The notes beneath the pieces are model-generated. The model had not been told where the DNA came from and ran no database searches. It saw only the letters and a list, made by a program, of their open reading frames with translations. From the NCBI GenBank assembly GCA_013205455.1, contig JABMMO010000004.1, forward strand, positions 1-43,098: 43,098 nucleotides of DNA, read 5' to 3'. This document shows, one piece after another, positions 15,260 through 42,785 of this stretch (its first letter is position 1; each line of letters starts with the position of its first letter). This DNA comes from Actinomycetota bacterium. Lineage in GTDB: Bacteria; Actinomycetota; Actinomycetes; Nanopelagicales; Nanopelagicaceae. The translations under genes were made by a program, and so were the position numbers.

Positions 15260-15268
15260 AATTCTCAT

Positions 15269-15795: not shown

Positions 15796-15826
15796 TTAAA
15801 ACTACTACCGAGAATCAGAAAATTAG

Positions 15827-19951: not shown

Positions 19952-20038
19952 GCTTTCCTCCAAATTAAGTGACTTATTTCCATTAAATCTTAGCGAATTT
20001 GGTAAAAAGTAGCGAGTATCTACAGAATAATTCGAAGC

Positions 20039-24904: not shown

Positions 24905-25842
24905 TTTGAACGCTCCATCAATTCTCGAACTTGAACTTCAGTCGGCATTGCATCACTGCACATTAATTGGGAAGCAACATAAGCTCCAGCGCCATTTGCA
25001 AAGGAGACTGAATCTTCTGGACTCCAGCCAGATAAGAGCCCATGTACTACGCCCGCACCAAATGCATCGCCGGCACCTAAGCCACATTTAGTTTTTATAC
25101 GTAGCCCTGGAATTGCAGTGGCGCTATTTCCATGAGCTACCAATACGCCAGTAGAACCACCTTTAACGATCGCCAATTTCGGGCCCATGGAGAGCAAGGC
25201 AGCCGCGAATTCTGCAGCGCTAGAGTTTTTCGGTAAGCCAGTTGCTACCGCGCACTCTTCCAAGTTTCCAATTGCGATAGTTGCATACTTAACTGCAGCA
25301 GAAATATCTTTATGAGCAATTTCAGGCGAACTCCAAAACGAAGGTCGATAATCAAGATCAAAGATTACTTCGCCACTTCGTACTTTAAGCAACTCAATTA
25401 CAGTATTGGAAAGCGGTGTTTGTGAAAGGGTAGACCCAGTAAACCAAAAATATTTTGCGGATTGAACTGCTTTGGTTAACCCTTCTGAATTTTCTACTTT
25501 TGTATCTGGCGCGCTGCTATCGCGATAAAAAATAAATTCAGGGTTATCTGGATCTTTAATACCCGCAACCACAATCGGGGTCTTCCCAGTTGGAGTTTTA
25601 ATTACAAATTCTGTTGAAACGCTGAATTTTTTTAATTCGTCAATCGCAAATTTGCCGAGCGCATCGCTGGCAACTCCAGTTATTACTGCGGTTTTATGGC
25701 CATATCTAGCAGTTCCAATCGCAACATTTGTAGGGCTGCCACCCACAGATTTCTGAAATGTTTGCGGATCAGATAAGCCGTGACCTTCTTCTTGCCCATA
25801 TAAATCAACGCTAATTCGGCCAATGGTGAGGAGGTCTAACAT
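24901..25842 (-). CDS. iolC: 5-dehydro-2-deoxygluconokinase (PfkB family)
   Basis: N-terminal LLTIGRISVDLYGQ, SVGGSPTNVAIG, and C-terminal GAGDAFGAG ribokinase-family motif. First gene of the iolCBD operon. Confidence 0.85.
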   Translation of the reverse strand: MLDLLTIGRISVDLYGQEEGHGLSDPQTFQKSVGGSPTNVAIGTARYGHKTAVITGVASDALGKFAIDELKKFSVSTEFVIKTPTGKTPIVVAGIKDPDNPEFIFYRDSSAPDTKVENSEGLTKAVQSAKYFWFTGSTLSQTPLSNTVIELLKVRSGEVIFDLDYRPSFWSSPEIAHKDISAAVKYATIAIGNLEECAVATGLPKNSSAAEFAAALLSMGPKLAIVKGGSTGVLVAHGNSATAIPGLRIKTKCGLGAGDAFGAGVVHGLLSGWSPEDSVSFANGAGAYVASQLMCSDAMPTEVQVRELMERSK

Positions 25843-25916: not shown

Positions 25917-26699
25917 TTGACTATATACATGGAGATGCATTCAACCAGCGTGATGACTCTCGCCATTGATTGCGGCGGGTTATTTATCAAAGGCTCGGTT
26001 CTAGATAGCGCTGGCACGTTACATGCGCAGCCAGTGGCAGTGCCAACTCCATATCCACTTTCTCCAACTCATTTGATTGAAACTATTGATGGCATCTCAA
26101 AAGGTTTACCGAATTTTGATCGACTAACTGTAGGAATGCCTGGCATGTTGCGACATGGCGTTGTTGTGCATACACCTCATTACATAAATGCAAAAGGTCC
26201 ACGCACTCGAATTGAGCCAGAGTTAGAAAAACAATGGAAAGGTTTTGATATTCAACGAGCCTTTGCGGAACATTTCAAAAAGCCTGCAATCGTTTTAAAT
26301 GATGCTGAAGTGCATGGAGCTGGTGTAATTAATGGTTCTGGATTAGAAGTTGTAATTACGCTTGGAACTGGGCTCGGATTCTCAATGTTTGATGGTGGAA
26401 AACTTGCACCACACTTTGAAATGTCAATGGCGCCGGTACGGAGAAACACCACTTATGACACTTGGGTTGGCGAGACTGAACTCCGTCGTCTTGGTGATTT
26501 ATTCTGGTCGCGTCGAATCCGATTAATGGTTGAAGATCTTCGAAAAGTTTTTCATTGGGATCGTCTTTATATTGGCGGGGGTAATTCACGTCGTATTCGC
26601 ACTGAAGTTCTGCAAGTTTTAGGCGATGACGTAGTGATCGTTTCTAATACCGCCGGAATTTTGGGAGGCGTTAAAGCCTGGTCATTGGAGCAAATTTAA
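25917..26699 (+). CDS. ROK-fold sugar kinase, polyphosphate-glucokinase (PpgK)-like
   Basis: LAIDCGGLFIKG (phosphate-1), VLNDAEVHGAG (catalytic Asp region), ITLGTGLGFSMF, and C-terminal YIGGGNS...NTAGILGG. The start is uncertain: TTG 25917, ATG 25929, 25935 or 25953. EMSM replaces the usual ELGH. Confidence 0.7.
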   Translation: MTIYMEMHSTSVMTLAIDCGGLFIKGSVLDSAGTLHAQPVAVPTPYPLSPTHLIETIDGISKGLPNFDRLTVGMPGMLRHGVVVHTPHYINAKGPRTRIEPELEKQWKGFDIQRAFAEHFKKPAIVLNDAEVHGAGVINGSGLEVVITLGTGLGFSMFDGGKLAPHFEMSMAPVRRNTTYDTWVGETELRRLGDLFWSRRIRLMVEDLRKVFHWDRLYIGGGNSRRIRTEVLQVLGDDVVIVSNTAGILGGVKAWSLEQI

Positions 26700-27578
26700 T
26701 TGGATTTGAAAAAGCAATTAGCCGGCGCACCAATTTCTTGGGGCGTTTGCGAAGCAAACGGTTGGGGTTATCAAATTGAAGCCGACCGGGTGTTAACTGA
26801 AATGCGCGAATGCGGAATTACCGCGACAGAGTTAGGCCCTGATGGTTACCTGCCGCAAAATGCAAAAGAGTTAGCAAGAGTTTTAGATGGACATGGTTTA
26901 GATTTATGTGGCGCCTTCGTTCCGATTGTTTTACATAAAAAAGATCGCTTGAAAGCGTCCTATGAAAGAGCACGCCGCCAAGCAGAAGTCTTAGCCAAAT
27001 TAAATGCTGGTAATTTTGTATTGGCTACGCCAGCTGAAGATGGCGATTACGACTCTCGAGATCCGATGGATGCCGAAGCGAAGGCAGTATTTTCGGAGTC
27101 GCTACCAATGATCACTGAGATTGCCAAAGAATTTGGTTTGGAAATGGTGTTACATCCACACGCAGGCACAATGTTTGAAACGCCAAATGATTTAGATTTC
27201 TTACTAAATGAAACTGACATCAACTTATGTCTTGATACTGGACATATTGTGGTTGGCGGTGGCAATCCTTTGGATATTGCTAAGCGCGCGGGTTCACGAG
27301 TGAAACATGTTCATCTAAAAGATTGTGATGCAGCCGCGGCCGCACGGATTCAAAATCGAACTTCGACTTATTCAACTGAAGTTAAAAATGGCATGTATAA
27401 GCCACTTGGGCAGGGCGATGCTCAAATATCTGAAGTAATTCGCTTTCTTGATGGCATTAATTACGAAGGCAAACTAGTATTAGAACAAGATGTGATGCTC
27501 GATCAAGCTCCAGCAGTTGGAGCCGGTCCAATTTCAGCAGTAAGAGAAAGTATTGATTTCCTAAAATCTATACTTTAA
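26700..27578 (+). CDS. iolE: Xylose-isomerase-like TIM-barrel protein, probable inosose dehydratase (IolE-like paralog 2)
   Basis: The TTG start directly follows the upstream TAA, with GGAG 9 nt upstream. LAGAPISWGVCE N-terminus, LHPHAGTMFET, LDTGHIVVGGGNP, HVHLKDC, and LVLEQD near the C-terminal end. Confidence 0.6.
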   Translation: MDLKKQLAGAPISWGVCEANGWGYQIEADRVLTEMRECGITATELGPDGYLPQNAKELARVLDGHGLDLCGAFVPIVLHKKDRLKASYERARRQAEVLAKLNAGNFVLATPAEDGDYDSRDPMDAEAKAVFSESLPMITEIAKEFGLEMVLHPHAGTMFETPNDLDFLLNETDINLCLDTGHIVVGGGNPLDIAKRAGSRVKHVHLKDCDAAAAARIQNRTSTYSTEVKNGMYKPLGQGDAQISEVIRFLDGINYEGKLVLEQDVMLDQAPAVGAGPISAVRESIDFLKSIL

Positions 27579-27638: not shown

Positions 27639-28490
27639 TTAATTACAAGCTTTGAACTTCAATAACTCCGTGCCATTTAGATCAAAACCATCATCAGGTG
27701 CAACATGTAGGAATAGATCATTGTTTTCGCTTGTGAGTGCAAATGGATTTCGTGTCAGTACATGACCAGCTTTGCTGAAGAATTGAATTGGTGTTTCATA
27801 ATCTATTCGTCGGTTGACAAAGTCAACTATGGCCATACCGCCTAATTCATAATCGCCTAACCCATTTGACTGAGGCAAGTTGGCGATTCCACCGCAAATC
27901 ACCTGACCGTTACCAGCGAACTGAGAATCTTGATAGTCAATAAAACTACTTGGATTTTCCCAGCGATCGAGTTCTTTACCATCGGAGTTCCAAGCATAAA
28001 ACTCTCGAGATCCCCAATTTCCACCATATATGGAACCGGTCTCTGAGTTACTTAACGCCCACCCAATCGAATCCTTTACTTGAAACCTTTCGGTAACTTG
28101 AAAATTTTTTGCATCAATAGTTAACATCATGCTCTTACCTTTTGGTCTATATTCTCCGACCGGCACCCAAACATTCGTGCCATCGAAATCTATTCCACCA
28201 GGGTGGTACATATCGCCCGCACCTATGGTTATATCTTTTAGCAGTTTTCCAGCGTGATCGGTTACAAACATATGACCAAGACCACGTCCCGGAGTCGATA
28301 GCGTCGGATCAAAGACATTTAGGGGTTTTTCTAAAACCTCGACCGATGAAAGAAAAATGTAATCACCAACAAAAGCCAACCCTTGGGGGTGATGAGTTGA
28401 GAAAGCAAGAGGAATTCGCTCTACTAGCTCCCAACGGGTATGTCGATTTTGACGCCCTACAAGTTCATTAAGGGTTAGCGCGGATTTCAT
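27639..28490 (-). CDS. Hypothetical protein, beta-propeller-like, no recognisable signal peptide
   Basis: 283-aa ORF rich in Gly/Asp/Trp beta-strand-turn repeats (HPQGLAFVGDYIFLSS, GHMFVTD, YHPGGIDFDGTNVWVPV, GWALSN..GSIYGGNWG, LGGMAIVDF). I cannot name the family from memory with confidence. Confidence 0.6.
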   Translation of the reverse strand: MKSALTLNELVGRQNRHTRWELVERIPLAFSTHHPQGLAFVGDYIFLSSVEVLEKPLNVFDPTLSTPGRGLGHMFVTDHAGKLLKDITIGAGDMYHPGGIDFDGTNVWVPVGEYRPKGKSMMLTIDAKNFQVTERFQVKDSIGWALSNSETGSIYGGNWGSREFYAWNSDGKELDRWENPSSFIDYQDSQFAGNGQVICGGIANLPQSNGLGDYELGGMAIVDFVNRRIDYETPIQFFSKAGHVLTRNPFALTSENNDLFLHVAPDDGFDLNGTELLKFKACN

Positions 28491-28538: not shown

Positions 28539-28605
28539 ACATCCTACCTGTTCGAAGGAAATCGACATCCGGTCTATTCCTTATTACTTGGAGGAGGCAC
28601 TTTTA

Positions 28606-29748
28606 GTGCGTAAAAATAAACTCGTATCAATACTTGCAGTAGCTGGTTTAGCAGTCGCCACTCTTGGCTTCACTGCATCCACAAGCCACGCTGCAGTATT
28701 TCAAGTTCGTTTGTATGTATCTGGAGATACTAACGTTGAAAGAATGTGGCTTACGGAATTAATTCCCGCATTTGAAAAAGCAAACCCAAATTACAACGTT
28801 GACGTATCTTCTTTTGATCTTCATGGAAAAAATGATGCGCTTACACTCGCAAAAATAATAGCAGCGTCAAAATTAAAAAGAGATGCAGGCTTTGATGTTA
28901 TTGAAGCTGGATTTGTTCAGGAGCTTGGATTAAAAGGCTATTTAACGATTCCTACAAGTTCTCGAATGCCAAATATCAATAACGTTCCTGCTTCGTTATT
29001 AGCAATGAGCAAGGGTGGAATTCCTTATCGAGCCTCAACAGTACTTTTGGCTTATAATTCACAAGTTGTTACAACTCCACCAAAGACTCTTGATGACCTT
29101 ATTGCTTGGATTAAAGCGAACCCAGGCCGTTTCACATATAACGTGCCATCAGGTGGCGGTAGCGGGTATTCATTTGCACAGACCGTTGTCGATAAGTACC
29201 TTACCGATGCAGAAATCGAAAAATTGGTAACTGAAGTTAATAAGCCGCTACAAGCTAAGTGGAAGCAAGGATTTGATTTACTCAAGTCGCTAAACCCTTA
29301 CACATACGGCAAAAATGGAACCTACCCATCAAACAACGCTGCAACTCTTTCGTTGGTTTCTAACGGATCAGTCGATATGGCAACAGTTTGGTCAGATCAG
29401 TTCCTTAGCGGTCTAAAAGCTGGAACCATTCCAAGTTATTGGAAGGTTGCTCAAGTAAGTGACCGATCGCTCACAGGTGGACCAGCAATTTTGGGAATTC
29501 CGAAGGGAACTCGCCAAGGCGTTGCGGCCCAACGTTTCGTGAACTGGTTGCTTTCACCAGTAGCACAGAACATCATCGTGGGTGGCACACTAAACGGCTA
29601 TCCAGTTGTTCCAGTGTCGATGTTGAGCACTGCTAACCAAGGTAAGTTTGCGGTTGGCACAGATGTCTCAAAACTACGCTCGAGCTATTTGTCTAGCAAT
29701 AATACTGATTTCAAAAATCAGTGGGCGCTTGAAGTTCCTGGTAAGTAA
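28606..29748 (+). CDS. ABC transporter periplasmic-type substrate-binding protein (secreted, not lipidated)
   Basis: I chose the GTG at 28606, 8 nt after GGAGGAGG; the track TTG at 28588 lies inside that SD. Signal peptide VRKNKLVSILAVAGLAVATLGFTASTSHA|A. No lipobox Cys. Confidence 0.8.
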   Translation: MRKNKLVSILAVAGLAVATLGFTASTSHAAVFQVRLYVSGDTNVERMWLTELIPAFEKANPNYNVDVSSFDLHGKNDALTLAKIIAASKLKRDAGFDVIEAGFVQELGLKGYLTIPTSSRMPNINNVPASLLAMSKGGIPYRASTVLLAYNSQVVTTPPKTLDDLIAWIKANPGRFTYNVPSGGGSGYSFAQTVVDKYLTDAEIEKLVTEVNKPLQAKWKQGFDLLKSLNPYTYGKNGTYPSNNAATLSLVSNGSVDMATVWSDQFLSGLKAGTIPSYWKVAQVSDRSLTGGPAILGIPKGTRQGVAAQRFVNWLLSPVAQNIIVGGTLNGYPVVPVSMLSTANQGKFAVGTDVSKLRSSYLSSNNTDFKNQWALEVPGK

Positions 29749-29753
29749 ATAGA

Positions 29754-30695
29754 TTGAGCGCTGCGGCTACAAACCAAGTCGCTAACGAGAGCTTTGGGTC
29801 GAAAGATCCAAAGCTCTCTGTTCTTGGTTTGTTCATGGCCTTGCCACCTATTTTGGTGCTCGGTACATTTATTGGATTTCCAATTGGTTTAGCTTTCTTA
29901 TTCTCAATTGGTTTCACCGGTGGCCTCAACGAAGTACTTTCAATTATTGGCCAAGATGTGCGCGGCCGAGATGGCAAGTTATTCACCCTGCAAGCGTATA
30001 AAGATGTAATTGCGGATCCACGTTTTGCCGGAGATGTAAAAACAACGCTAATAGTTTCATTTGTTGCGACAGTATTTGTTTTGTTATTTTCAACCGGAAT
30101 TGGTTTATTACAACGACTTCGTGGCGGAAAACTTTCCTCCGTGTTGACTGCGCTCTCGCTAACACCGCTATTTATTCCAGTAGTAATTTCTTCGTGGGCG
30201 CTCTATACCTTTTATGGTAGCGCTGGCCTCTATCGCACTATTTTTCATTCGTTTGGTATCGATGTTCCACAGATAACATCAACGATGCTTGCTGTTATTA
30301 TTGGTTCAATCTGGGTCTCGTTGCCGTTCGCGACATTAATGATAACTTCAGGATTACAATCTGTACCCAATGCTTTAATCGAAGCTGCCCAAGATGCTGG
30401 CGCGAGTTTAATTACCATTATTAGAACGGTTATGTTGCCGTTAGCTTTGATTCCGATAATTATTGCTCTCACATTCACTTCTATCGGCATCTTAGGTTCA
30501 TTCACAGTTCCATTTTTCTTAGGAGCAAATCAGCCAACTATGTTTGGCGTAGAAATCACCAACTTCTTCTCTGTCTATAATCGACCACAACAGTCGATAG
30601 TTATGGCGTTTATTGTTTTTGCCGCTGCTTCTGGGATCGCGTTCTTCTACATTTGGGCAAATTTTCGCAATGCTAAAGAGAGTGGGAGAGTTTGA
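29754..30695 (+). CDS. ABC transporter permease 1
   Basis: Six hydrophobic segments. EAA loop IEAAQDAGASLITIIRTVMLPL. The start is ambiguous: TTG 29754 puts the stem-loop inside the gene, while TTG 29829 or ATG 29835 leave it intergenic. Confidence 0.8.
   Translation: MSAAATNQVANESFGSKDPKLSVLGLFMALPPILVLGTFIGFPIGLAFLFSIGFTGGLNEVLSIIGQDVRGRDGKLFTLQAYKDVIADPRFAGDVKTTLIVSFVATVFVLLFSTGIGLLQRLRGGKLSSVLTALSLTPLFIPVVISSWALYTFYGSAGLYRTIFHSFGIDVPQITSTMLAVIIGSIWVSLPFATLMITSGLQSVPNALIEAAQDAGASLITIIRTVMLPLALIPIIIALTFTSIGILGSFTVPFFLGANQPTMFGVEITNFFSVYNRPQQSIVMAFIVFAAASGIAFFYIWANFRNAKESGRV
29787..29818 (+). promoter_or_regulatory. Intercistronic RNA stem-loop (14-bp stem, GAAA tetraloop)
   Basis: GAGAGCTTTGGGTC-GAAA-GATCCAAAGCTCTC gives 13 Watson-Crick pairs plus one G-U pair. 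It starts 39 nt after the SBP stop and is followed by the T-rich TGTTCTTGGTTTGTTC. Confidence 0.55.
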
Positions 30696-31537
30696 TGGCA
30701 AAGGATGTCCAGCCGCTCAATCTCTACACTAAATCAGTTGGTGTAAAGGTATTACTATCACTTTTCTCGGGCTTCATGCTGCTTTTGATCGTAGGACCAT
30801 TGCTCTGGTTAGCAATACATGCATTTGCAACCGAGTGGTTATTCCCTAGTTATAAGCCGAAAGGCTGGACGCTGGATTGGTTCCGTAAAGTATTTGAGGT
30901 TCCAACTCTTGTTGACGCAATGAAAACCTCATTAATTATTTCTCCCATAGTTGTATTACTTTCTGCAGTTATTTGTTTACCAGCCGCTTATGCATCAGCC
31001 AGATACAACTATTGGGGTCGCAAATCTTTTTTAATTATAATGTTTGCATCAAATGCTTTTCCTAAAATTGGGTTATTTGCAACCATTGCAACACTTTATT
31101 ATTTCTTAAACTTGATGGGCACGCTTGTTGGTGTAATTATTATTCAAGTACTAGGGACTATTATTTTCATGACTTGGATTCCAGCTGCGGCCTTTGCAGC
31201 AGTGCCAAAATCCTTAGAAGAAGCAGCCCGCGATGCTGGCGCTGGCAAGTTCCGGGTTTTCCGTACCATCACGTTAAAAATGGCAATGCCCGGAATTTTA
31301 GTAGCAATGGTCATGTCGTTCATTTATGCATTTGATGAAGCCCAAGGAACATTCTTGATTGGCGCGCCAACTATCTACACCATGCCAACTGCGATGTATG
31401 CGATTGTCGAAACTTACCCAATTCAAGTTACTGCAGTATTTTCGATACTTTTAACGATCCCATCAGTTCTTCTAATAGGTTTAGCACGTAAGCACATCAT
31501 CGGTGGCCAATTGGCTGAAGGTTTCCAGATCAAATGA
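30695..31537 (+). CDS. ABC transporter permease 2
   Basis: The ATG at 30695 overlaps the upstream TGA by 1 nt (TGATG), with GGGAGAG upstream. EAA loop LEEAARDAGAGKFRVFRTITLKMAMPG. Confidence 0.85.
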   Translation: MAKDVQPLNLYTKSVGVKVLLSLFSGFMLLLIVGPLLWLAIHAFATEWLFPSYKPKGWTLDWFRKVFEVPTLVDAMKTSLIISPIVVLLSAVICLPAAYASARYNYWGRKSFLIIMFASNAFPKIGLFATIATLYYFLNLMGTLVGVIIIQVLGTIIFMTWIPAAAFAAVPKSLEEAARDAGAGKFRVFRTITLKMAMPGILVAMVMSFIYAFDEAQGTFLIGAPTIYTMPTAMYAIVETYPIQVTAVFSILLTIPSVLLIGLARKHIIGGQLAEGFQIK

Positions 31538-31556: not shown

Positions 31557-32573
31557 ATGGCTAATCAAAGTGGAGAAGGTCTCGAGCTAGTCGGCCTCCG
31601 CAAAATATTAGGTGGTCGAGTAATCATCGATGACTTAAACCTTGTAGTTAACAAGGGCGAGATGGTTTCACTGCTCGGTCCATCAGGTTGCGGCAAGACC
31701 ACGACACTTCGCATGATTGCTGGATTTTTAATTCCGGAATCTGGAAAAGTTTTCTTAGCCGGGAAAGATGTAACTGAAATTGGACCAGAAAAGCGCCCGA
31801 GCGCAATGGTTTTCCAAAATTATGCGCTCTGGCCACACATGACCGTTTTTAAGAACGTTGCATATCCGCTCAAGGTAAGAAAAATGTCGAAGTCCGAGAT
31901 TGAAAAACGAGTACACGATGTCCTAGAAATGGTGAACTTAATGCACCATAAAGATTCGCGCCCAGCTCAAATTTCTGGCGGCGAACAACAACGTGTTGCA
32001 CTTGCTCGAGCTTTAGTTCAAGAGCCAGACATTCTCTTGCTCGATGAACCACTTTCTAATCTTGATGCAAAGCTCCGCGTTAAAGTTCGTGAAGATATTC
32101 GCGAACTGCAACGCCGGCTCGGCATTACCACGGTAATTGTGACCCATGATCAAGATGAAGCGCTATCTATTTCAGATCGAATTGCTGTTATGAATGAAGG
32201 ACGCATTGAACAATTTAGTACGCCACAGGAGCTTTATGATGCGCCACAAACTGAATATGTAGCTAACTTTATTGGCTCACTAAACCGCGTTACTGGATCA
32301 TTCGAAAACGGTGCGATTTCTGCTGGCAGTGATGTGATCGGAATTCGCCCTGAGGATGTTTTCTTTAGCAAAAACCAAATACCTGGCAGCGTTGCTGCGA
32401 CCGTTACTTTGGTTGTGCCGCGTGGTCATTTCTATGAAGTCTATTTAAAACGAAACGATGCAGAGTTGAGAGCATTTGTTTCCAGTGAAGTACCTAAGGC
32501 TGGCGATGCCGGTTTTGCTAACATCACTAAAGCGCTGATTTATCGGGATGGCAAGCTAGTAAGAACTGCTTAA
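31557..32573 (+). CDS. ABC transporter ATP-binding protein with C-terminal regulatory (TOBE-like) domain
   Basis: Walker A GPSGCGKTT, signature ISGGEQQRVALARAL, Walker B ILLLDEPLSNLD, H-loop VTHDQDEA. About 100 extra C-terminal residues. Confidence 0.92.
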   Translation: MANQSGEGLELVGLRKILGGRVIIDDLNLVVNKGEMVSLLGPSGCGKTTTLRMIAGFLIPESGKVFLAGKDVTEIGPEKRPSAMVFQNYALWPHMTVFKNVAYPLKVRKMSKSEIEKRVHDVLEMVNLMHHKDSRPAQISGGEQQRVALARALVQEPDILLLDEPLSNLDAKLRVKVREDIRELQRRLGITTVIVTHDQDEALSISDRIAVMNEGRIEQFSTPQELYDAPQTEYVANFIGSLNRVTGSFENGAISAGSDVIGIRPEDVFFSKNQIPGSVAATVTLVVPRGHFYEVYLKRNDAELRAFVSSEVPKAGDAGFANITKALIYRDGKLVRTA

Positions 32574-32578
32574 TTCTA

Positions 32579-34093
32579 ATGTCCACAAACTCAACAAATA
32601 TTTGCGCTCATCGAGGCGATTCCAGTCGCTTTCGCGAGAACACAATCGTTGCGATTAAATCTGCGATTGATTCTGGTGCAGCTGTTGTTGAGATTGATGT
32701 TCAAATTTCCAAAGATGGAAAAGTAGTAGTAATACATGACCCAACCCTAGAAAGACTTTGGGGTTTAGATAGGAATGTTTCCGAAGTTAATTGGTCCGAA
32801 ATTTCTGAGCTTGGCGCAGCCGAGAATAAAATACCGCTGCTTTCCGATGTATTGCCGCTCTTTGAGAACTCTAAATCAGTTTTGATGATAGATATGGGAG
32901 AGAGTGGTCCCGCAAAATTAGCTTTTGAAGTTGCGTCAAAGAGCAACGCAAAGATTTACTGGTGTGGCGACTTAGAAGGCATGCGTATCATTCGCTCACT
33001 CTCAGAGAGTGCGAATATCTGGATGCCGTGGGATGTCAATGCAACAGTGACTGCCGCTGATATTGTTGAACTAAAACCAACTTTCATAAATTACCATTAT
33101 TCATTCTTAACCAAGAGCAAAGTCGAAGCTACTCACGCACTTGGCTGCAAAGTATCAATTTGGACTGTTGATGATGAAGCCACAATGCGTTGGGCAAAAG
33201 CTATTGGAATCGATTCTGTTACAACAAACGAGTTAGCGCTATTGCAGCGAGTACTTAGTGAACCGCCATTAATTTCTAAAAATGAGAAAAAGGCAGCAGA
33301 TATCGATCTTGATCGTGCGCTAATAGTCGCGCGAGATCTTGGAAAATGGGCGATTCTGGTGGCAAAATCGATGGACCCAGGAAAAATTGAATTGAAAGAA
33401 AATCCTGCCGATATCGTTACTGAAATTGATGTGATGATTGAAGCCCATGTTCGAGAAGTAATCTCTGCTAATTTTCCTGGCCATAATTTCGTGGGCGAGG
33501 AGATGGGGGGCACTTATCTTGCCGAAACACCAGCTTGGTATTTAGATCCAATTGATGGCACCACGAATTTTGCAAATCGAATGCCTTGGAGTTCATTTTC
33601 ACTAGCGCTAGCCTTTAATCGCACGCCGTTACTTGGAATCGTGATTGACCCATGGCGTGATGAACTTTATGAAGCTGCAAAAGGTAAAGGTGCGAAAGTT
33701 AATGGTAAAACTCTAAAAGTTGAGAACTTAACTGGTGTAGAAAATCCGCTTAGTAGTCGTATAGTTTCGACGGAGTTGGCGGCTTATCAACCTTGGCCCG
33801 GAATGCTTGGCTTACTTGAAGAGCTAGCGAAGAACTTCTGCACGATGCGAATAATGGGATCCGGAACTTTAACCGTAAACGGAGTAGCGGCTAATCGTGG
33901 CGTTGGCGCAGTGATTGGCCAATTCAGCCCGATTGATCATTTAGCAGCGGTAATAATTGTGCATGAAGCGGGCGGCGTTGTTTATGACGAAACTGGGAAA
34001 GTTAACTTATTTCCAGAGACTGGCGGAATTATGACTGCAACTCCGGCTGCTGCAGATGCACTATATAAAATCTGGCAGAAAGTTATTTCATAA
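32579..34093 (+). CDS. Fusion protein: glycerophosphodiester phosphodiesterase (GDPD) domain + inositol-monophosphatase-family (IMPase) domain
   Basis: N-terminal half: CAHRGDS..RENT, VVEIDVQISKDGKVVVIHDPTLERL, SIWTVDD, DSVTTNE (GDPD). C-terminal half: ADIVTEIDV, NFVGEEMGG, WYLDPIDGTTNF, IIVHEAGGVV (IMPase family). One uninterrupted 504-codon ORF. Confidence 0.8.
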   Translation: MSTNSTNICAHRGDSSRFRENTIVAIKSAIDSGAAVVEIDVQISKDGKVVVIHDPTLERLWGLDRNVSEVNWSEISELGAAENKIPLLSDVLPLFENSKSVLMIDMGESGPAKLAFEVASKSNAKIYWCGDLEGMRIIRSLSESANIWMPWDVNATVTAADIVELKPTFINYHYSFLTKSKVEATHALGCKVSIWTVDDEATMRWAKAIGIDSVTTNELALLQRVLSEPPLISKNEKKAADIDLDRALIVARDLGKWAILVAKSMDPGKIELKENPADIVTEIDVMIEAHVREVISANFPGHNFVGEEMGGTYLAETPAWYLDPIDGTTNFANRMPWSSFSLALAFNRTPLLGIVIDPWRDELYEAAKGKGAKVNGKTLKVENLTGVENPLSSRIVSTELAAYQPWPGMLGLLEELAKNFCTMRIMGSGTLTVNGVAANRGVGAVIGQFSPIDHLAAVIIVHEAGGVVYDETGKVNLFPETGGIMTATPAAADALYKIWQKVIS

Positions 34094-34106
34094 TAGTGTT
34101 TTGCAA

Positions 34107-35012
34107 ATGATCAAAAACAATCCGATGGTCTTGGCTATAGATGTTGGAGCTTCAAAAATATCTGGTGCAATTGTTGATAGAAACCTTAAAATTGTACATA
34201 AAGATTTAAAAGCAAGTAGGGATAGTGTCACAGGATTAGCTGATCAAAATCTGGATCGCACCAAGAAAATGATTAAAACATTGCACGTTATAGCAAATAA
34301 CGAAGATATCTCGATATTTAGCGCTGCAGCCGGCTTTCCTGAATACGTAGACTTAGCGGGCAATTTAACTAGTAAGGATCAAATAGATTGGCAGATTCAA
34401 CCTAGTTTGGATTTTTCACAAATCTTGCCAGTACCTTGGACTATTCAATCTGATGTCAGATGTGCTGGAATCGCAGAAGCTCGGTTAGGTAGTGGTAAGA
34501 ATGAATCTGATTTCGTCTATATAACTATTAGTACCGGTATCTCGCACACACATTTCATTGGCGGAAAGCCTATTTCGGGCTTTGATGGACGAGCCATCGG
34601 GTTCGGCGTAATTGAAATAGACACTGGGAGTGAAATTGTGCCTCTGGAAAATTTTTCTTCTGGCCTAGGAATCGCTCGTCGGTATAGCGCTATTACCGGA
34701 GATACGAATATTAATGCAAATTCACTATTTGCTGATTTTAAAAGCAACAGTTTGGCTAGAGAAATTATTGAATCTGCAGCTGCAATTTTAGGAAGGGAAA
34801 TTGCCATTTTTGGGAATTCATTGCCAACTAAGGTAATCGTAATTGGCGGCGGACTTTGGATGGGTAGCGAGATTTATCGTAACCTGGTACTAACCTCTTT
34901 TCAAAAAATATCTAAAGAATTGGGTTACAACGGAAATATTTTAAACGCCACAGTTTTAGATGCAGGAGTAATAGGTACTGCCATTTATGCTTTAGAAAGT
35001 GTTACTAATTAG
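34107..35012 (+). CDS. ROK-fold protein lacking the canonical zinc motif (putative sugar/cyclitol kinase)
   Basis: I chose the ATG at 34107, 13 nt after the upstream stop. LAIDVGASKISG, QSDVRCAGIAEARLGSG, ITISTGISHT, VIGGGLW, GVIGTA. No HTH domain and no ExGH/CxCGxxGC segment. Confidence 0.65.
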   Translation: MIKNNPMVLAIDVGASKISGAIVDRNLKIVHKDLKASRDSVTGLADQNLDRTKKMIKTLHVIANNEDISIFSAAAGFPEYVDLAGNLTSKDQIDWQIQPSLDFSQILPVPWTIQSDVRCAGIAEARLGSGKNESDFVYITISTGISHTHFIGGKPISGFDGRAIGFGVIEIDTGSEIVPLENFSSGLGIARRYSAITGDTNINANSLFADFKSNSLAREIIESAAAILGREIAIFGNSLPTKVIVIGGGLWMGSEIYRNLVLTSFQKISKELGYNGNILNATVLDAGVIGTAIYALESVTN

Positions 35013-35805
35013 GAGTTGCGGCGAATTTATCAGCAATGATTAACGCGTTGCTGCATTCAGCGATAATTGTGGCCGGCCAATCAGATTCATATTTGGTTGC
35101 CATAGAAATTCTTTTATAAGCTCGTTTTTTATCAGGCCCGGCCAACAACATAATTGCCTGCTTTGAAACATCCACTATCGTCGCTGGACCAACCGTAACT
35201 CCATAATTGGGCACTTCATCAAGTGATGCAAAATCTGGGAAAGTTTTTAAATTATCCTTGCGAGTTTCGACTGACAATGGTGTTATGCGAGTTCTGTCAT
35301 TTCTATCGCTTCCAACTCCGTTAAAAGCAACGTGGCCATCACTGGCACCTGAAGCTAGCAAAAATATATCGACACCTAATTTCATTAGGGTATCTTCAAA
35401 GGTCTTGGGGTCTCTAGCATCTGGAATTAGAACATTTGACATTAGAATCTGATTTTTGTGAGGTAAATCCCCATTTAATACATCTCTAATTTCATCGTAA
35501 GCAAATTTCTTACAACTGAAATGAGATTTGATATCGACATTGTTAAATGATGCGTCTTTACCTTGAATGGCATAGTCATCCATCATGGCAATCACCACAT
35601 GGCTTAAAGACTGATTATTTCTCTTTATCAAATTCGCCAACGCGCTATAAGTTGATCGGGGAGTGCGGCCACCGGGACAGCCCAGTACGAAAAGATTTCC
35701 AATGTCATAACATTTCTTGAGCTCTACAAAAACTAATTCGGCCGCAATTTTACCGAGGTCAATTTCATCTGATGCAATTATAGATTCTGATTTTTTAGAT
35801 TTCAT
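35005..35805 (-). CDS. Glucosamine-6-phosphate deaminase/isomerase (NagB)-family protein
   Basis: FVLGCPGGRTP, MMDDY, ASGASDGHVAFNG, TRITPLSVETRKDN, VPNYGVTVGPAT align by eye with E. coli NagB blocks (GLPTGGTP, NMDEY, GNDGHIAFNEP, TRIKTL..DTR, VP..ALTVG). Last gene of the minus-strand ABC operon. Confidence 0.75.
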   Translation of the reverse strand: MKSKKSESIIASDEIDLGKIAAELVFVELKKCYDIGNLFVLGCPGGRTPRSTYSALANLIKRNNQSLSHVVIAMMDDYAIQGKDASFNNVDIKSHFSCKKFAYDEIRDVLNGDLPHKNQILMSNVLIPDARDPKTFEDTLMKLGVDIFLLASGASDGHVAFNGVGSDRNDRTRITPLSVETRKDNLKTFPDFASLDEVPNYGVTVGPATIVDVSKQAIMLLAGPDKKRAYKRISMATKYESDWPATIIAECSNALIIADKFAATPN

Positions 35806-35806
35806 T

Positions 35807-36634
35807 TTATTCTTTCACAGCTCCTGAAATAATGCCTCTAATTAATCTTCGTTGTAAGAATAAGTAAGCAATAAGTACAGGTAATGCTACTAATACCGCG
35901 GCTGCAGCAGTTACAGGCGGTTCGCTATTTCTGCGATTGCCAGCGAAAAAGGAGAGTGAAAGCGGAACTGTTTGAATAGATGTATTACTTGGGATCAAAA
36001 CTAAGGCTAGAAGGAACTCGTTCCATGTGAATAGAAAAAGAAGGGTTGCAAGTGTGCCAATAGCCGATTTAGCAAGTGGAATTAGGATGAATCTTAAGCT
36101 TTGAATTCTGTTAGCCCCATCTAAACTTGCTGACTCAATGATTGATTTCGGCACGGTACTAAAAAAAGTACGTAACCACAGAACAGCAAAAGGCATAGAC
36201 AGGGCAACCTGAGGAAGAATTAGCGCCCAGTAAGTATTTAATAAATGCAGTGAGCTCATCATTTCATACAGCGAAATTACTACACCTTCATACGGCATCA
36301 CTAAGCCGAAAAGTAATAAAACCAGAATAGTTTTTGCAAAGGGTACTTGCATCAATGCAAAAGCGTAACCTGCCAAAATTGCACAAAATAAGGTAAGTAA
36401 AACAACGCAACTTGATACGAGAAGACTTGAAAGCATTGCATGGTTAAAAGCACCACGTTGCCAAGCTTCAACATAATTTCCTAAGTAAAATCCGAGAAAT
36501 TCATTTTGAACTTTAGAATTGTTGCTTTTACTGGTTAGTGAGAGGTTTACAATTGAAAAGAGCGGATAAATAGCGATTACAGCACCTAAAATCAAAACAA
36601 AATATGCAATAGTTTTTTCTTTGATATTAATCAT
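35807..36634 (-). CDS. Carbohydrate ABC transporter permease (MalG-like)
   Basis: Six hydrophobic segments. EAA loop ESASLDGANRIQSLRFILIPLAKS. 8-nt overlap with the upstream permease gene. Confidence 0.88.
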   Translation of the reverse strand: MINIKEKTIAYFVLILGAVIAIYPLFSIVNLSLTSKSNNSKVQNEFLGFYLGNYVEAWQRGAFNHAMLSSLLVSSCVVLLTLFCAILAGYAFALMQVPFAKTILVLLLFGLVMPYEGVVISLYEMMSSLHLLNTYWALILPQVALSMPFAVLWLRTFFSTVPKSIIESASLDGANRIQSLRFILIPLAKSAIGTLATLLFLFTWNEFLLALVLIPSNTSIQTVPLSLSFFAGNRRNSEPPVTAAAAVLVALPVLIAYLFLQRRLIRGIISGAVKE

Positions 36635-37526
36635 GAGATTCTCTTCGTGCTAGTAACAATAATCCAGTTACTGTAAGAATCACTATTGCTAACAAAAATG
36701 AGGTAGCCGCAGCTTCGCCTACATATCGATTGACAAATGCAGATTTATAAATGAATAAACTAGGAACATTGGTAGAATTCCCCGGGCCACCTTGAGTAGC
36801 ATTCCAAACAATATCAAAATTGCGCAGAGCAAAAGTTAAAGTAATAATCAGTACAATCGATATCTCACCTTTTATACTTGGAATTAAAATATATCTAAAT
36901 TCCTGCCGCATATTGGCGCCATCTATTCGATCGGCATCCAGTAGGTCTTGAGAAATTCGTTGAGCACCAGATAGAAAAAGAATCATTGCAAGCCCATAAT
37001 TTATCCAAGTGCCGATTATTCCAACTGCAATTAATGATGTATCAAAATTGCCGAGCCAGGCAGTTGTAATTTTTTCCGCTCCAAATTTTGCCAAAAGAGC
37101 ATTTATCGGGCCATCGGCTGCATAAATCCATCTCCAGGAAATCGCCACTACTACAGTGGATATTATTTGAGGTAGAAATAAAATTGCCCTAAAGAAGGAT
37201 TCGCCTCTAATTTTTACCCTTAAAAGAAGAAGAGTGATTAGTAGCCCAACGGCTATTGGAATTAAGCTGTAAAACAGAACAAAGACTAAAGAATGTGAAA
37301 ATGCTGAATAAATTTCCGGATTAGATAGAACTTTTTTGTAGTTATCTAATCCAACCCATACCCCGGGAGAAATTCGATCCCATTTCCAAAAGGATAGCCA
37401 AATTGTTTGGAAAATAGGATAAACCACAAATATTGAGAATAAGGAGATTGCAGGAGCAATGAATAATAATGAAGACCATTCAGCATAACGAAAGCGCCAC
37501 ATCAATTTTTTTAGAGACATTTTCAA
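36627..37526 (-). CDS. Carbohydrate ABC transporter permease (MalF-like)
   Basis: EAA loop DADRIDGANMRQEFRYILIPSIKG. The start is TTG 37526 or ATG 37520, with GAGG upstream. Confidence 0.88.
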   Translation of the reverse strand: MKMSLKKLMWRFRYAEWSSLLFIAPAISLFSIFVVYPIFQTIWLSFWKWDRISPGVWVGLDNYKKVLSNPEIYSAFSHSLVFVLFYSLIPIAVGLLITLLLLRVKIRGESFFRAILFLPQIISTVVVAISWRWIYAADGPINALLAKFGAEKITTAWLGNFDTSLIAVGIIGTWINYGLAMILFLSGAQRISQDLLDADRIDGANMRQEFRYILIPSIKGEISIVLIITLTFALRNFDIVWNATQGGPGNSTNVPSLFIYKSAFVNRYVGEAAATSFLLAIVILTVTGLLLLARRESHD

Positions 37527-37571
37527 TATACCTCTTTTATTGATGTGACGCTTTGCATTATTTAGTTTATT

Positions 37572-38927
37572 TTATCCGTTTCTAGATTTTTGGAAAGTAT
37601 CCCAATTATCTTGAATTGCTTGCATTATTTCAGCAGCTTTAATTTTTCCTGCCATGAATTCCTGCAATTTGGCGGTATAAACATCATACATAGTGTCAGT
37701 CGACCAATCTAAGTAGAATGTTAACCCAGCATCTTGGAACATTTTCTTTCCTGCATCTTGCATATCTTTAAGCAATGCACTACTTGCTTCTAAAGTTGCA
37801 GTTGCGGAAGGAATGCGATCAAGTGATGCTAGTGATGGTGCAAATGCTGGATCCATAATCATCGCAACAAATGCTACAGAAGCGGCAAGTGCATCAGTTT
37901 TGCTACTAATGTGCCAACCCAGTCCGTATGAACCAGTACCGGCATGTTTTCCGGATGCACCTGGCGGATTGGCTATAAAGCCAGCATCTTCGCCAAGACC
38001 TTCACCAATTGTTCCACCAAACCAAGTTCCACCCATATAGAAGAGGCCATTACCTGCGGCAAATTTTGCAGTTGCATCATCAGCGCTAACTCCATCAAAA
38101 CCCTTCGTGAAGTAGCCCTTTGTGATCCAATCTCGCATCGTATTTAGCGCTGTTTCGTTTGTGCTAGAAATAAATGAAGAACCAGCTTTTCCAGTAATTA
38201 GATCTTTAGTTTCTGATGCAGGAGTAAATGCACCTTGAATTAATCCAAAAACGTGAGTAGCAGGCCATTTATCCGAGTTGCCAAGAATAATTGGAGTCTC
38301 TCCAGCTTTCTTAGCTTTTTCAAGCGCTGCCGCAAATTCATCAAAAGTATTAGGAAGGGCGATTCCTAAATTGGCTAATTTTTTCTTGTTATAGAAAACT
38401 CCTACAAATTCTCCAACCGGACTCATTCCGTAGAGTTCTCCAGTTCCATATTGGGAACCATCTTCACTCCAACTGAATTGTCCAAAGTCATCGGGGTTAT
38501 AAGCAGATCCCCAGTTGTATGCGGTAGACACATCTGTCAATTTTCTGATCAAGCCGCCTTTCACTAGCGCACCATCTACTCCGTAGCCTTGGTTTCCTTG
38601 AACTACGTCTGGAGCAGGATCGCCCGCCAATGCCGGCACCACAGTTTTCATAAGATCATCAAAACCTTTTAAAGTTAGATTTACTTTAACGTTGGGATAC
38701 ATTGCTTCATATTTAGGAACTAGTATTTTCATAGTTTTTTCTTCACCAGCATCTGCCCAAACATCTAGCGTGATATCTCCTAGTGCAGCAACCTCTTCAA
38801 CAGTTACCGGCTGACTAATCACATCTGCTGTATTCGCTTTGCTTCCAGTGTCAGAACCCGGGCTAGAACATCCGGTGATCATTAGCGTGACTATTGCAAA
38901 TAGTATTCCCAATCTTTTCTTAAACAT
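37572..38927 (-). CDS. Carbohydrate ABC transporter substrate-binding lipoprotein (CUT1-type)
   Basis: Lipobox LMITGC after a signal peptide (MFKKRLGILFAIVTLMITGCSS). About 450 aa, the size of a sugar SBP. Strong SD GGAGGGGG. Confidence 0.88.
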   Translation of the reverse strand: MFKKRLGILFAIVTLMITGCSSPGSDTGSKANTADVISQPVTVEEVAALGDITLDVWADAGEEKTMKILVPKYEAMYPNVKVNLTLKGFDDLMKTVVPALAGDPAPDVVQGNQGYGVDGALVKGGLIRKLTDVSTAYNWGSAYNPDDFGQFSWSEDGSQYGTGELYGMSPVGEFVGVFYNKKKLANLGIALPNTFDEFAAALEKAKKAGETPIILGNSDKWPATHVFGLIQGAFTPASETKDLITGKAGSSFISSTNETALNTMRDWITKGYFTKGFDGVSADDATAKFAAGNGLFYMGGTWFGGTIGEGLGEDAGFIANPPGASGKHAGTGSYGLGWHISSKTDALAASVAFVAMIMDPAFAPSLASLDRIPSATATLEASSALLKDMQDAGKKMFQDAGLTFYLDWSTDTMYDVYTAKLQEFMAGKIKAAEIMQAIQDNWDTFQKSRNG

Positions 38928-40265: not shown

Positions 40266-42785
40266 ATGAGCTCCCTCCCAAGCAAGGCTAAAGTAGTTGT
40301 AATTGGCGCTGGCATCGTCGGTAACAGCATGCTTTATCACTTAGCTCGACTTGGTTGGCGCGATTTAGTTCAGATCGATAAAGGACCGCTACCTAACCCA
40401 GGTGGATCTACCGGCCACGCATCTAATTTTATTTTCCCTACAGATCACTCAAAGGTGGTCTCTACAATAATTGCAGATAGCGTCCGTCAATATAAAGAAC
40501 GCGGCACATTTACGAAGTGCGGTGGTATCGAAGTAGCTCGTACACCCGAACGAATGCAAGAACTTACTAGACGCATGACGTCGGCAAAATCTTGGGGCGT
40601 CTCTGATGCTAAGTTGCTAACACCAGCTGAAGTGAAAGCGCTAGTTCCTTACATTGATGAAACGGTAATTCTTGGAGGTTTCTACTCACCATCAGTTGGA
40701 GTCGTGGATGGACTTCGTGCGGGGACTCTAATGCGCGAAGATGCAATTGCAATGGGAGCAGCGCAAACCTTTGCAAATATTGAAGTTCTTGGAATGGATG
40801 TAGAAGATGGTCGAATAAAGCGAGTCCGTACCGATCACGGCGATATTGAAGCCGAGTACGTTGTTATTGCAACTGGTTGTTGGAGTCCAAAATTAGCTGC
40901 GATGGCAGGTGCGTACATTCCGCTTACGCCAGCAGTTCATCAAATGAAAGATATCGGGCCAGTTCCATTCTTTAAAGATGCCAAAGGCGATATCGAATGG
41001 CCCATTGTTCGTGACATGGATGCCGGTATGTATGAACGGCAACATGGAACTTCTTTGGAAGTTGGTTCCTACGCGCATCGACCAATTCTTTACTCGCCCC
41101 AAGATATTCCATCAAATGCTGCTGCAGCGCTTTCACCAACAGAATTCCCATTCACTCAAGCTGACTTCGATCTACAAGATGAACACTCGCTCGAACTAAT
41201 GCCTTCAATCGTTGGCGACGAAAACGTGAGCGAAAAATATGCAATTAACGGAATTCTTTCGCTAACTCCGGACGGCATGTCAATTCTTGGTGAAACTCCG
41301 GAGGTAAAGGGGCTTTGGTCGGTCGCTGCAGTCTGGGTAAGAGAGGCACCTGGTACTGGAAAAGCTGTTGCAGAGTGGATGGTTTTGGGCGAATCTGAAA
41401 TAGATCTACATGCTTCTAATATTGCCCGCTTTAGCGAACATCAAAAACTAGATAGCCATGTAAAGGCGCGCTGCGCTGAAGGTTTTGTTAAAACTTATGG
41501 CATCGTCCATCCAAATGAACAATGGTCGAGCAATCGCAATATTCGACTTTCACCATTTTACGAACGCGAAAAAGAACTTGGTGCAGTTTTCTATGAAACT
41601 GCCGGTTGGGAACGGCCATTTTGGTATGAATCAAATGCCAAGTTAGTTGAAAAATTTGGCGCTCGCGTTATGCCCCGAACCGCGGAATGGGAATCACGGT
41701 GGTGGTCACCAATAATTAACGCCGAACATTTACAGATGCGCGAAACTGCTGGCATTGTGGACTTAAGCGCTTTTGCAATATTCGATGTAACTGGATCTGG
41801 CGCACTTGCCTTAGTTCAAAAGGTTGCGCTCCGCCAAATGGATGTCGCAATCGGACGTGTGGTTTACACGCCAGTCCTTGGGATTAATGGTGGATTCAGA
41901 TCAGATTTAACAATTATGCGGTTAGCCGAAAACCACTTCCGAGTTGTTACCGGCGGGGCTCACGGCATGACAGATTTAAAATGGTTTAAAGACCAACTTC
42001 CCGAGGATGGATCCACAACTATCATCGACTTAACTACAAGTTATGTGACAGTTGGAGTTTGGGGTCCAAAAGCTCGCGACATTTTAAGTGCAATTACAAA
42101 CGCAGATTTATCAATGGATGCTTTTAAGTTCAGCACTTGCAAAGAGATTGAAATTGGATCGCTTAAAGTTTTAGCTTCCCGAATTTCCTATGTCGGCGAT
42201 CTTGGTTGGGAGCTTTATATTCCCGTCGCAGAAGGTGAAAAACTATGGGATCTGCTCTGGGAATCTGGCGCAAAGTTCGACGCGATTCCGGTGGGTATCG
42301 GTGTTTATGGAACTACTGGACGAATCGAAAAAAGTTACCGCGCCTATGGCCATGAACTAGAAACCGAATACAACGTTGTTGAAGCTGGGATGCAGACGCC
42401 GAAGTTAAAAGAGCAGGATTTCATTGGGAAAGCAGCACATATCGCGCACCGCGAAGCAAAACCAGTTGCGACTCTAGTTTCACTTTTTGTCGATGATCAT
42501 AAATCCAAGAGCGGTGAAAACCGTTACATGATGGGCAAAGAACCAATCCTCACTCTTAACGGTCAAACTATTACCGATGCACACGGCCGGCATTCATATG
42601 TAACTAGCGCAGGATCAGCACCATCGCTTGGGAAACATATTCTTATGACCTATCTACCAACCGAACTTGCCGTAATCGGTGCGAAATTCTTAGTTGAATA
42701 TTTAGGGGAGCGCTATCCAGTTAGCGTTGCTAGCGTTAGCTCAACACCGTTATTTGATCCAACGAACGAAAGAATTCTTAATTAG
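40266..42785 (+). CDS. Dimethylglycine oxidase / sarcosine-dimethylglycine dehydrogenase-family flavoenzyme with GcvT-like folate domain
   Basis: FAD motif VVVIGAGIVGNS and GGSTGHAS, the position of the covalent-FAD His in Arthrobacter DMGO (GGSTSHAP as I recall). 839 aa, with a C-terminal aminomethyltransferase-like half (ISYVGDLGWELYIP). Confidence 0.8.
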   Translation: MSSLPSKAKVVVIGAGIVGNSMLYHLARLGWRDLVQIDKGPLPNPGGSTGHASNFIFPTDHSKVVSTIIADSVRQYKERGTFTKCGGIEVARTPERMQELTRRMTSAKSWGVSDAKLLTPAEVKALVPYIDETVILGGFYSPSVGVVDGLRAGTLMREDAIAMGAAQTFANIEVLGMDVEDGRIKRVRTDHGDIEAEYVVIATGCWSPKLAAMAGAYIPLTPAVHQMKDIGPVPFFKDAKGDIEWPIVRDMDAGMYERQHGTSLEVGSYAHRPILYSPQDIPSNAAAALSPTEFPFTQADFDLQDEHSLELMPSIVGDENVSEKYAINGILSLTPDGMSILGETPEVKGLWSVAAVWVREAPGTGKAVAEWMVLGESEIDLHASNIARFSEHQKLDSHVKARCAEGFVKTYGIVHPNEQWSSNRNIRLSPFYEREKELGAVFYETAGWERPFWYESNAKLVEKFGARVMPRTAEWESRWWSPIINAEHLQMRETAGIVDLSAFAIFDVTGSGALALVQKVALRQMDVAIGRVVYTPVLGINGGFRSDLTIMRLAENHFRVVTGGAHGMTDLKWFKDQLPEDGSTTIIDLTTSYVTVGVWGPKARDILSAITNADLSMDAFKFSTCKEIEIGSLKVLASRISYVGDLGWELYIPVAEGEKLWDLLWESGAKFDAIPVGIGVYGTTGRIEKSYRAYGHELETEYNVVEAGMQTPKLKEQDFIGKAAHIAHREAKPVATLVSLFVDDHKSKSGENRYMMGKEPILTLNGQTITDAHGRHSYVTSAGSAPSLGKHILMTYLPTELAVIGAKFLVEYLGERYPVSVASVSSTPLFDPTNERILN

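Follow-up and report, generated by a model that had tools for sequence, protein, structure and literature searches.

A fused glycerophosphodiesterase and inositol-monophosphatase-family protein at the end of a conserved importer operon in Actinomycetota, a candidate for inositol phosphodiester utilisation

We analyzed a 43,098-nt contig of a Nanopelagicaceae bacterium (GenBank JABMMO010000004.1, assembly GCA_013205455.1; hereafter the window) around a gene at 32579..34093 on the forward strand, which encodes a glycerophosphodiester phosphodiesterase (GDPD) domain and an inositol-monophosphatase (IMPase)-family domain in a single polypeptide. The fusion is genuine, and its gene closes a tightly packed run of five, in the order substrate-binding protein (SBP), permease, permease, ATPase and fusion, that together form an ATP-binding cassette (ABC) importer cassette. 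This place at the end of an importer operon, missed by an original prediction made from the sequence, is the strongest clue to the role of the protein. The arrangement has the same design as the Acc- and Ugp-type systems of phosphodiester utilisation, in an uncharacterised fused form found widely across an ecologically dominant lineage. We propose, giving the reading an even chance of being right, that the fusion is the enzymatic end of an uptake-and-hydrolysis cassette that handles an inositol phosphodiester, for example the glycerophosphoinositol left by deacylation of phosphatidylinositol.

The open reading frame (ORF) runs uninterrupted from an ATG at 32579 to a stop codon at 34091-34093 and encodes 504 aa, which bears out the earlier claim that one 504-codon ORF carries both domains. 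Residues 1 to ~235 make up the GDPD domain (32579-33283), residues ~228-243 the linker and residues 244-504 the IMPase-family domain (33308-34090). Every motif quoted in the original prediction was found at its place in the protein: AHRGDS (residues 10-15), ENT (20-22), EIDVQISKDGKVVVIHDPTLER (38-59) and WTVDD (195-199) in the first half, and DIVTEID (278-284), VGEEMGG (305-311), WYLDPIDGTTNF (320-331) and HEAGG (462-466) in the second. A Pfam-A search placed both halves in the families named for them, well over the curated cut-offs: GDPD (PF03009) matched with 120.5 bits against a cut-off of 23.6 (E 1.6e-34; best stretch at residues 11-148, with a second stretch), and Inositol_P (PF00459) with 154.2 bits against 27 (E 6.2e-45; residues 262-502). 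An AlphaFold2 model built from 32 sequences reached a mean predicted local distance difference test (pLDDT) score of 87.7 and a predicted template-modelling score of 0.88. The linker region (residues 221-240) was modelled at pLDDT 87-93, and this confidence suggests that the fusion is a fixed two-domain body. We found no solved structure covering both halves; the best query-normalised TM-score was 0.46.

We studied residue conservation in an alignment of 23 fused proteins reaching down to 31% identity. Invariant or near-invariant in the GDPD half are H11, R12, E20, N21, E38, D40, H53, D54 and D105, and the conserved residues of this half align with catalytic or metal-binding residues of solved GDPDs. 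In the IMPase half, E307, E308, D323, D326, D453 and H454 are invariant, the first five of them aligning with metal-binding residues of SuhB and IMPA1. The family also has peculiarities of its own: the usual E-x-K of GDPDs is replaced, with the invariant D105 as third ligand and the Lys absent, and the last metal-binding Asp (D453) is directly followed by the invariant His (H454). As had been claimed, both halves belong to the named families with their catalytic residues kept; metal-binding residues are retained too, and each domain is predicted on these grounds to be active.

The best NCBIfam model for the GDPD half was the UgpQ-type NF006989, yet it scored 66.7 bits against a cut-off of 264, and the best solved relatives of this half are generic cytosolic GDPDs. 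For the C-terminal half, the best-scoring model was the SuhB-type IMPase NF008027, with 101.9 bits against an equivalog cut-off of 332; its closest solved relatives are IMPases and SuhB (E ~1e-28, TM-score 0.77-0.90), with solved HisN (1e-14) and CysQ (2e-6) behind them. HisN (TIGR02067; 99.9 against 275 bits) and CysQ (TIGR01331; 46.7 against 229 bits) were rejected as identities for this half, and the scenario that the earlier note had offered as a refutation, a C-terminal domain of histidinol-phosphatase or CysQ type, does not apply with scores so far below the cut-offs. SuhB and IMPA1 are the best matches of residues 244-504 in sequence and fold, with the EE, DPIDGTTNF and final-Asp metal motifs kept. 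The half differs from them in falling below the equivalog cut-off, in the replacement of Glu213, in its own invariants D453-H454 and TELA...PWPG, and in being fused to a GDPD.

The fused architecture proved to be widely conserved, together with the importer cassette. Among 5.8 billion proteins searched, 531 were related at E 1e-10 or better; the best 120 clusters were 59-96% identical and 462-519 aa long, all with both Pfam domains, and their source names pointed to Nanopelagicaceae and 'Ca. Planktophila'. Scanning one genome per species yielded 49 loci; some lie on complete chromosomes of Nanopelagicaceae, and three cultured species of Cryobacterium have the fusion at ~50% identity. An exhaustive search of 1.8 billion cluster representatives gave ~20 fused proteins of full length, the most distant of them 31% identical. 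A metagenome scan using a generic IMPase motif matched mostly stand-alone IMPases and added six useful loci. Besides Cryobacterium, the named carriers, all of them Actinomycetota, include Arthrobacter bambusae (517 aa), a Micrococcales isolate and Bifidobacterium psychraerophilum, whose 515-aa copy is listed in RefSeq as an 'inositol monophosphatase family protein'. In all fused loci the IMPase half is more conserved than the GDPD half (e.g., 75% against 59%); within the acI lineage the two are typically 73-77% and 55-61% identical, respectively.

In 54 fetched loci both halves stood in one frame with no stop between them, and a mis-join is implausible because independent assemblies and isolate genomes carry the fusion. 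Two-gene versions, raised as a doubt in the original prediction, do exist among distant relatives (≤43% identity), and a few single-domain representatives occur at 47-51% identity (true split genes or truncated gene calls), but with 54 independent fused loci, including isolate genomes and complete chromosomes, and a linker modelled with confidence, the chance that an assembly or frameshift artefact joined two separate genes is negligible. We found no paper on the fusion, nor on bacterial use of glycerophosphoinositol via such an operon. The original prediction knew of no characterised enzyme with this architecture, and we found none in the literature or among solved structures; it missed that the architecture is already present in RefSeq under a generic name.

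All five genes of the cassette lie on the forward strand, with gaps of -4 to 19 nt. The SBP (28588..29748; Pfam SBP_bac_8/SBP_bac_1) has an N-terminal signal-like segment and is followed by permease 1 (29754..30695) and permease 2 (30692..31537), both BPD_transp_1 proteins in conserved synteny and overlapping by 4 nt, and by the ATPase (31557..32573; ABC_tran with a TOBE_2 tail). The ATG of the fusion comes 5 nt past the ATPase stop. We found the cassette in every locus with enough flanking sequence, in acI, Cryobacterium, Arthrobacter, B. psychraerophilum and other lineages, each time with the SBP gene upstream of the fusion. The SBP belongs to an orphan, PRK11622/YnjB-like subfamily: PRK11622 is its best NCBIfam model (84 bits, below the cut-off of 203), and the family profile gave only weak partial matches in the Protein Data Bank (PDB), to MalE, HitA and PotD at 20-30 bits. 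The label given to the cassette SBP in IMG, 'putative spermidine/putrescine transport system substrate-binding protein', rests on this weak superfamily similarity. We rejected a polyamine importer of PotD/PotF type, the PotD match being partial (24.6 bits, E ~1e-4) and no better than those to MalE and HitA. Two papers on acI genomes list polyamine ABC transporters, which may include the cassette, and make no mention of inositol, glycerophosphodiesters or phosphodiesters.

The association with the transporter extends beyond the fused form. In Streptomyces sp. N50 and in loci L076-L078, the same transporter is followed by GDPD and IMPase genes that are unfused but overlap or adjoin at their ends, and the two activities therefore travel together, fused or not; in locus L111 the gene pair has the reverse order. 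The fusion is thus one outcome in a wider family of transporter-linked pairs of diesterase and phosphatase. Among the distant fused members, two (L069 and L071) are paired with a major facilitator superfamily (MFS) transporter, and five (L067, L068, L070, L072 and L073) stand alone without a transporter.

The closest characterised analogue of the fusion is the AccF/AccG pair of Agrobacterium. On pTiC58 the acc genes run in the order accR, accA-E, accF (GDPD family) and accG (IMPase family) (pTiC58 record), and AccF converts agrocinopine A to sucrose and arabinose-2-phosphate, leaving the phosphate on the sugar ring, with AccG as the proposed phosphatase (PMC4526662). As in the window, a GDPD-family enzyme is followed by an IMPase-family enzyme at the end of an ABC-importer operon, and in tblastn searches the fusion aligned colinearly over adjacent GDPD/IMPase gene pairs on Agrobacterium plasmids. 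Another Agrobacterium plasmid carries the order SBP-permease-permease-UgpC-GDPD-IMPase with a ROK regulator, and the cassette ATPase of the window shares 46.5% identity with one annotated as UgpC in an Agrobacterium GDPD and IMPase operon. In contrast to the fusion, AccF and AccG are two separate genes, with identities of 34% to the GDPD half (over 104 aa) and 28% to the IMPase half; AccA is another class of binding protein, with no BLAST match to the SBP of the window, and the importer has two ATPases. The acc operon is, moreover, plasmid-borne and AccR-regulated and comes without DUF6454 and without a link to inositol catabolism. We rejected orthology to AccF/AccG, as the identity is at family level only and the binding protein of another kind, and the likeness is therefore one of design.

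A similar comparison holds for the Ugp system of Escherichia coli, in which the established gene order is ugpBAEC-ugpQ. It shares with the cassette a binding protein, two permeases, an ATPase (of the UgpC/TOBE type) and a cytosolic GDPD, whereas UgpQ lacks a fused phosphatase and yields glycerol-3-phosphate. Orthology to Ugp was likewise rejected, the GDPD half reaching 67 of the 264 bits required for UgpQ and the SBP of the window not being UgpB-like.

What points to inositol is the neighbourhood. Directly upstream of the cassette and on the reverse strand, three genes of the inositol-catabolic (iol) pathway pass their NCBIfam equivalog cut-offs: IolC (24901-25842; 303.4 against 300), IolB (24026-24904; 216.2 against 205) and IolD (22200-24077; 750.2 against 715). 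Around them lie proteins that score below the cut-offs of their nearest models, namely, an IolE-like AP_endonuc_2 protein directly upstream of the DUF6454 gene and the cassette (26700..27578, forward; TIGR04379, 150 against 290), a second IolE-like protein (21322-22203, forward; 126 against 290), an IolG-like GFO_IDH_MocA protein (18824-20080, reverse; 93 against 355) and an MGH1/GH63-like glycosidase (20039-21322, forward; glucosylglycerate hydrolase, 152 against 550). A short ROK protein resembling polyphosphate glucokinases (25917..26699, forward; Pfam ROK; NF045942, 78 against 250) is encoded between iolC and the IolE-like gene at 26700. Neither IolJ nor IolA was found in the window, and the cassette is the only transporter there that adjoins the iol cluster.

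The same neighbours recur elsewhere. Genes for IolE-like or other iol-type proteins lie directly upstream of the cassette in ~17 acI loci, and the trio of IolG-like protein, glycosidase and IolE-like protein is found upstream of it in eight loci (L017, L021, L023, L026, L027, L029, L035 and L041). In locus L064, where the fusion is 48% identical, IolE-like, IolG-like, GntR, transporter and fusion genes share one strand, and in L069 (~40% identical), IolD (864 against 715) and IolG (365 against 355) are located 5-10 kb from the fusion. The link to iol genes is thus recurrent over at least three arrangements, without being universal.

A separate observation concerns two metagenomic loci, L091 and L099, each with a stand-alone IMPase that shares 32-34% identity with the C-terminal half and lies directly beside IolG; in L091, IolD is also there, with an ABC ATPase nearby. 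They hint at a wider occurrence of phosphatases within iol clusters.

Given this context, we envisage four steps. The secreted SBP and the importer, with its two permeases and one ATPase, would bring the diester into the cell; the N-terminal GDPD domain would cleave it to inositol phosphate and glycerol or another alcohol; the fused IMPase-family domain would strip the phosphate from the inositol phosphate; and free myo-inositol would enter the adjacent iol pathway (IolG-like, IolE-like, IolD, IolB and IolC), with phosphate gained as a bonus. A regiochemistry of the kind needed is known from GDE3, which converts glycerophosphoinositol to inositol phosphate and glycerol, whereas GDE1 yields inositol and glycerol phosphate (PMC3725514). 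The likeness of GDE3 to the fusion is one of family and chemistry: GDE3 and GDE1 are both membrane-bound ectoenzymes of mammals and have no phosphatase domain. The original prediction had taken the two chemistries for consecutive steps acting on an inositol diester. The logic of consecutive steps is backed by the adjacent-gene relatives and by AccF/AccG, and the inositol substrate by IolD, IolB and IolC upstream and by iol-type genes in two other lineages; we infer, however, both the substrate and the side of cleavage, and many loci lack iol genes. Di-myo-inositol phosphate, the other substrate suggested there, is unlikely because it is a solute of hyperthermophiles and the host is a lake bacterium. 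The best-supported part of the proposal is the general mechanism, in which a diester is imported, cut by the GDPD so that the phosphate remains bound to a ring, and dephosphorylated, and the alcohol is catabolized.

If import of an inositol phosphodiester is confirmed, it would give hard-to-grow bacteria a concrete and testable source of carbon and phosphorus, correct a transporter label that public databases have propagated and provide a bifunctional enzyme for studying the hand-over of substrate from diesterase to monoesterase. The cultured carriers A. bambusae, Cryobacterium spp. and B. psychraerophilum make genetic tests possible.

Several points weigh against inositol phosphodiester import. 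Bacterial GDPDs usually release glycerol-3-phosphate, and after a cut on that side the second domain would have no inositol phosphate to act on. The IMPase half falls short of every NCBIfam equivalog cut-off, and in its family the position of human IMPase Glu213, which we take to be the ligand of an inositol hydroxyl in IMPA1 structures, is Gly or Ile and not acidic. The SBP has no close relative with a defined ligand among solved structures. Some 11 acI loci lack iol-type neighbours within reach, and none were found within reach in Cryobacterium, A. bambusae, L076 and several of the stand-alone copies, the flanks in Cryobacterium and L076 carrying little information. The synteny shared within acI may come partly from common descent. 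The IolE-like and IolG-like neighbours are below cut-off and come from families that also serve other sugar-oxidation pathways. Finally, it is from sequence and gene context that the proposal draws.

Some of these points would fit a general scavenging of glycerophosphodiesters or organic phosphorus in the manner of Ugp, a reading we judge unlikely. The GDPD would then produce glycerol-3-phosphate and an alcohol, and the phosphatase would act on glycerol-3-phosphate or other monoesters, the main gain being phosphate in phosphorus-poor lakes. The gene order is that of ugpBAEC-ugpQ, the ATPase resembles a UgpC-annotated one, the GDPD half has a UgpQ-type model as its best NCBIfam match and generic cytosolic enzymes as its best solved relatives, Exo_endo_phos neighbours in B. 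psychraerophilum and Cryobacterium suggest phosphorus-scavenging surroundings, and iol genes are absent from many loci. Yet the UgpQ cut-off is missed widely, the SBP is not of the UgpB kind, and the E-x-K of the GDPD has given way to an invariant D105 with no Lys. Scavenging also leaves the recurrent iol adjacency unexplained, and a dedicated fused phosphatase would be wasteful for glycerol-3-phosphate because this is a central metabolite.

Slightly less probable, to our mind, is a sugar or polyol phosphodiester other than that of inositol, for instance an agrocinopine-like compound or a fragment of teichoic acid or phosphoglycan, from which the GDPD would leave a non-central sugar or polyol phosphate for the IMPase-family domain to dephosphorylate. 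The precedent is AccF/AccG with arabinose-2-phosphate, joined by the Agrobacterium plasmid with UgpC and the ROK regulator; the missing equivalent of Glu213 and the broad specificity of the IMPase family are compatible with such a substrate. Sugar-type genes are also at hand: a GH63-like glycosidase, ROK kinases and subthreshold GFO_IDH_MocA and AP_endonuc_2 paralogues lie near the cassette in the window and in L064, and B. psychraerophilum has FGGY kinase, AP_endonuc_2 and Aldolase_II genes upstream. The identity to AccF and AccG is at family level, however, with an SBP of another class than AccA, and the neighbours that do pass curated cut-offs are IolD, IolB, IolC and IolG rather than generic sugar genes. 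More doubtful still is an internal housekeeping role without a functional tie to the transporter, either in recycling the cell's own glycerophosphoinositol or in supplying inositol for the synthesis of phosphatidylinositol or mycothiol: Actinomycetota, to which all named carriers belong, generally make inositol lipids, and the five distant copies that stand alone would suit such a role, but in the window, as in every relative that is at least 48% identical, the gene sits tight behind the importer, with 5-nt spacing, and the split versions keep the same transporter.

Within the cassette, one noncoding signal stood out. A perfect 14-bp stem-loop (29787..29818, forward strand) lies just past the SBP stop, within the annotated 5' end of the permease 1 ORF, and almost every acI locus, as well as L064, has an equivalent hairpin 30-65 nt past the end of the SBP gene, with predicted energies of -25 to -39 kcal/mol. 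Stem sequences vary between loci with the pairing kept. The hairpin is probably intercistronic, because an in-frame ATG near 29835 would place it outside the permease gene, and as such it probably sets the ratio of SBP to permease. It matched no Rfam family, and no known riboswitch or other RNA element was found in the cassette or upstream of it, even when the threshold was permissive. In scans for promoters and terminators, sites were no more frequent than in shuffled sequence, with the post-SBP hairpin as the only exception.

Divergent from the cassette lies a gene for a DUF6454 protein (27639..28490, reverse strand; PF20055, 189 bits). DUF6454 genes occur near the cassette, in varying positions, in L002, L007, L009, L024, L026, L035, L037-L040, L048 and L064; in A. 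bambusae the gene overlaps the stop of the fusion by 20 nt. In A. bambusae and L064, a look-up that began with DUF6454 arrived at the cassette again, and coordinates elsewhere are 9001-9852 in L062 and 8001-8873 in L064, where a second, stand-alone IMPase gene follows it. The AlphaFold2 model is a beta-propeller (pLDDT 92) with ~50 invariant residues, many of them His, Asp or Glu; its nearest folds in the PDB are glutaminyl cyclases (TM-score 0.55-0.64), a generic beta-propeller match that also extends to YjiK-type proteins. A permissive Pfam scan and a sequence search of the PDB added no clue to function, and we found no mention of DUF6454 in the literature. The protein may have a role in the pathway of the cassette. 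It is conceivable, if improbable, that the cassette works together with DUF6454, the GH63/MGH1-like glycosidase, the ROK kinases and the iol genes in an undescribed pathway by which actinobacteria, including the dominant freshwater acI, import and completely dismantle glycosylated inositol phosphodiesters, for example, deacylated phosphatidylinositol mannosides or the head groups of glycosyl-inositol-phosphoceramides. DUF6454 would then be a new pathway enzyme, and inositol phosphate would be channelled from one active site of the fusion to the other.

On the other side of the fusion, a ROK sugar kinase gene starts 10 nt downstream (34104..35012, forward strand; Pfam ROK). It opens a block (34104-38927) that continues with a NagB-like deaminase/isomerase and a second sugar-type ABC importer of two permeases and an SBP_bac_1 binding protein. 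The downstream kinase always co-occurs with the NagB-like gene, and in close relatives the block from ROK to the second SBP is present or absent as a unit; in L002, where it is absent, the cassette abuts the next gene. The kinase probably belongs to this NagB-like/sugar-ABC module and not to the cassette, and we rejected it and the NagB-like gene as pathway members, judging the module to be a separate insertion or deletion. In B. psychraerophilum (L066, 12995-17662), the cassette has beside it a gene for a 1555-aa secreted protein with Exo_endo_phos and LTD, Metallophos and 5'-nucleotidase domains, and in a Cryobacterium locus (L037, 68-1618) an Exo_endo_phos protein is found beside it. In these two unrelated genera, the proteins might act outside the cell, making or processing what the importer takes up.

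Further from the cassette, the window encodes two membrane proteins of the TerC/Alx family (13121-14014 and 15827-16720), a family usually under riboswitch control. A 568-nt gap before the second of them (15260-15826) has no ORF of at least 150 aa and is long for a compact genome; an Rfam search of the gap found nothing, even with E up to 1. Near the end of the window (40266-42785, forward strand), an 839-aa protein, unrelated to the fusion, combines a DAO-type FAD oxidoreductase with a GCV_T folate-binding domain and resembles dimethylglycine/sarcosine dehydrogenases.

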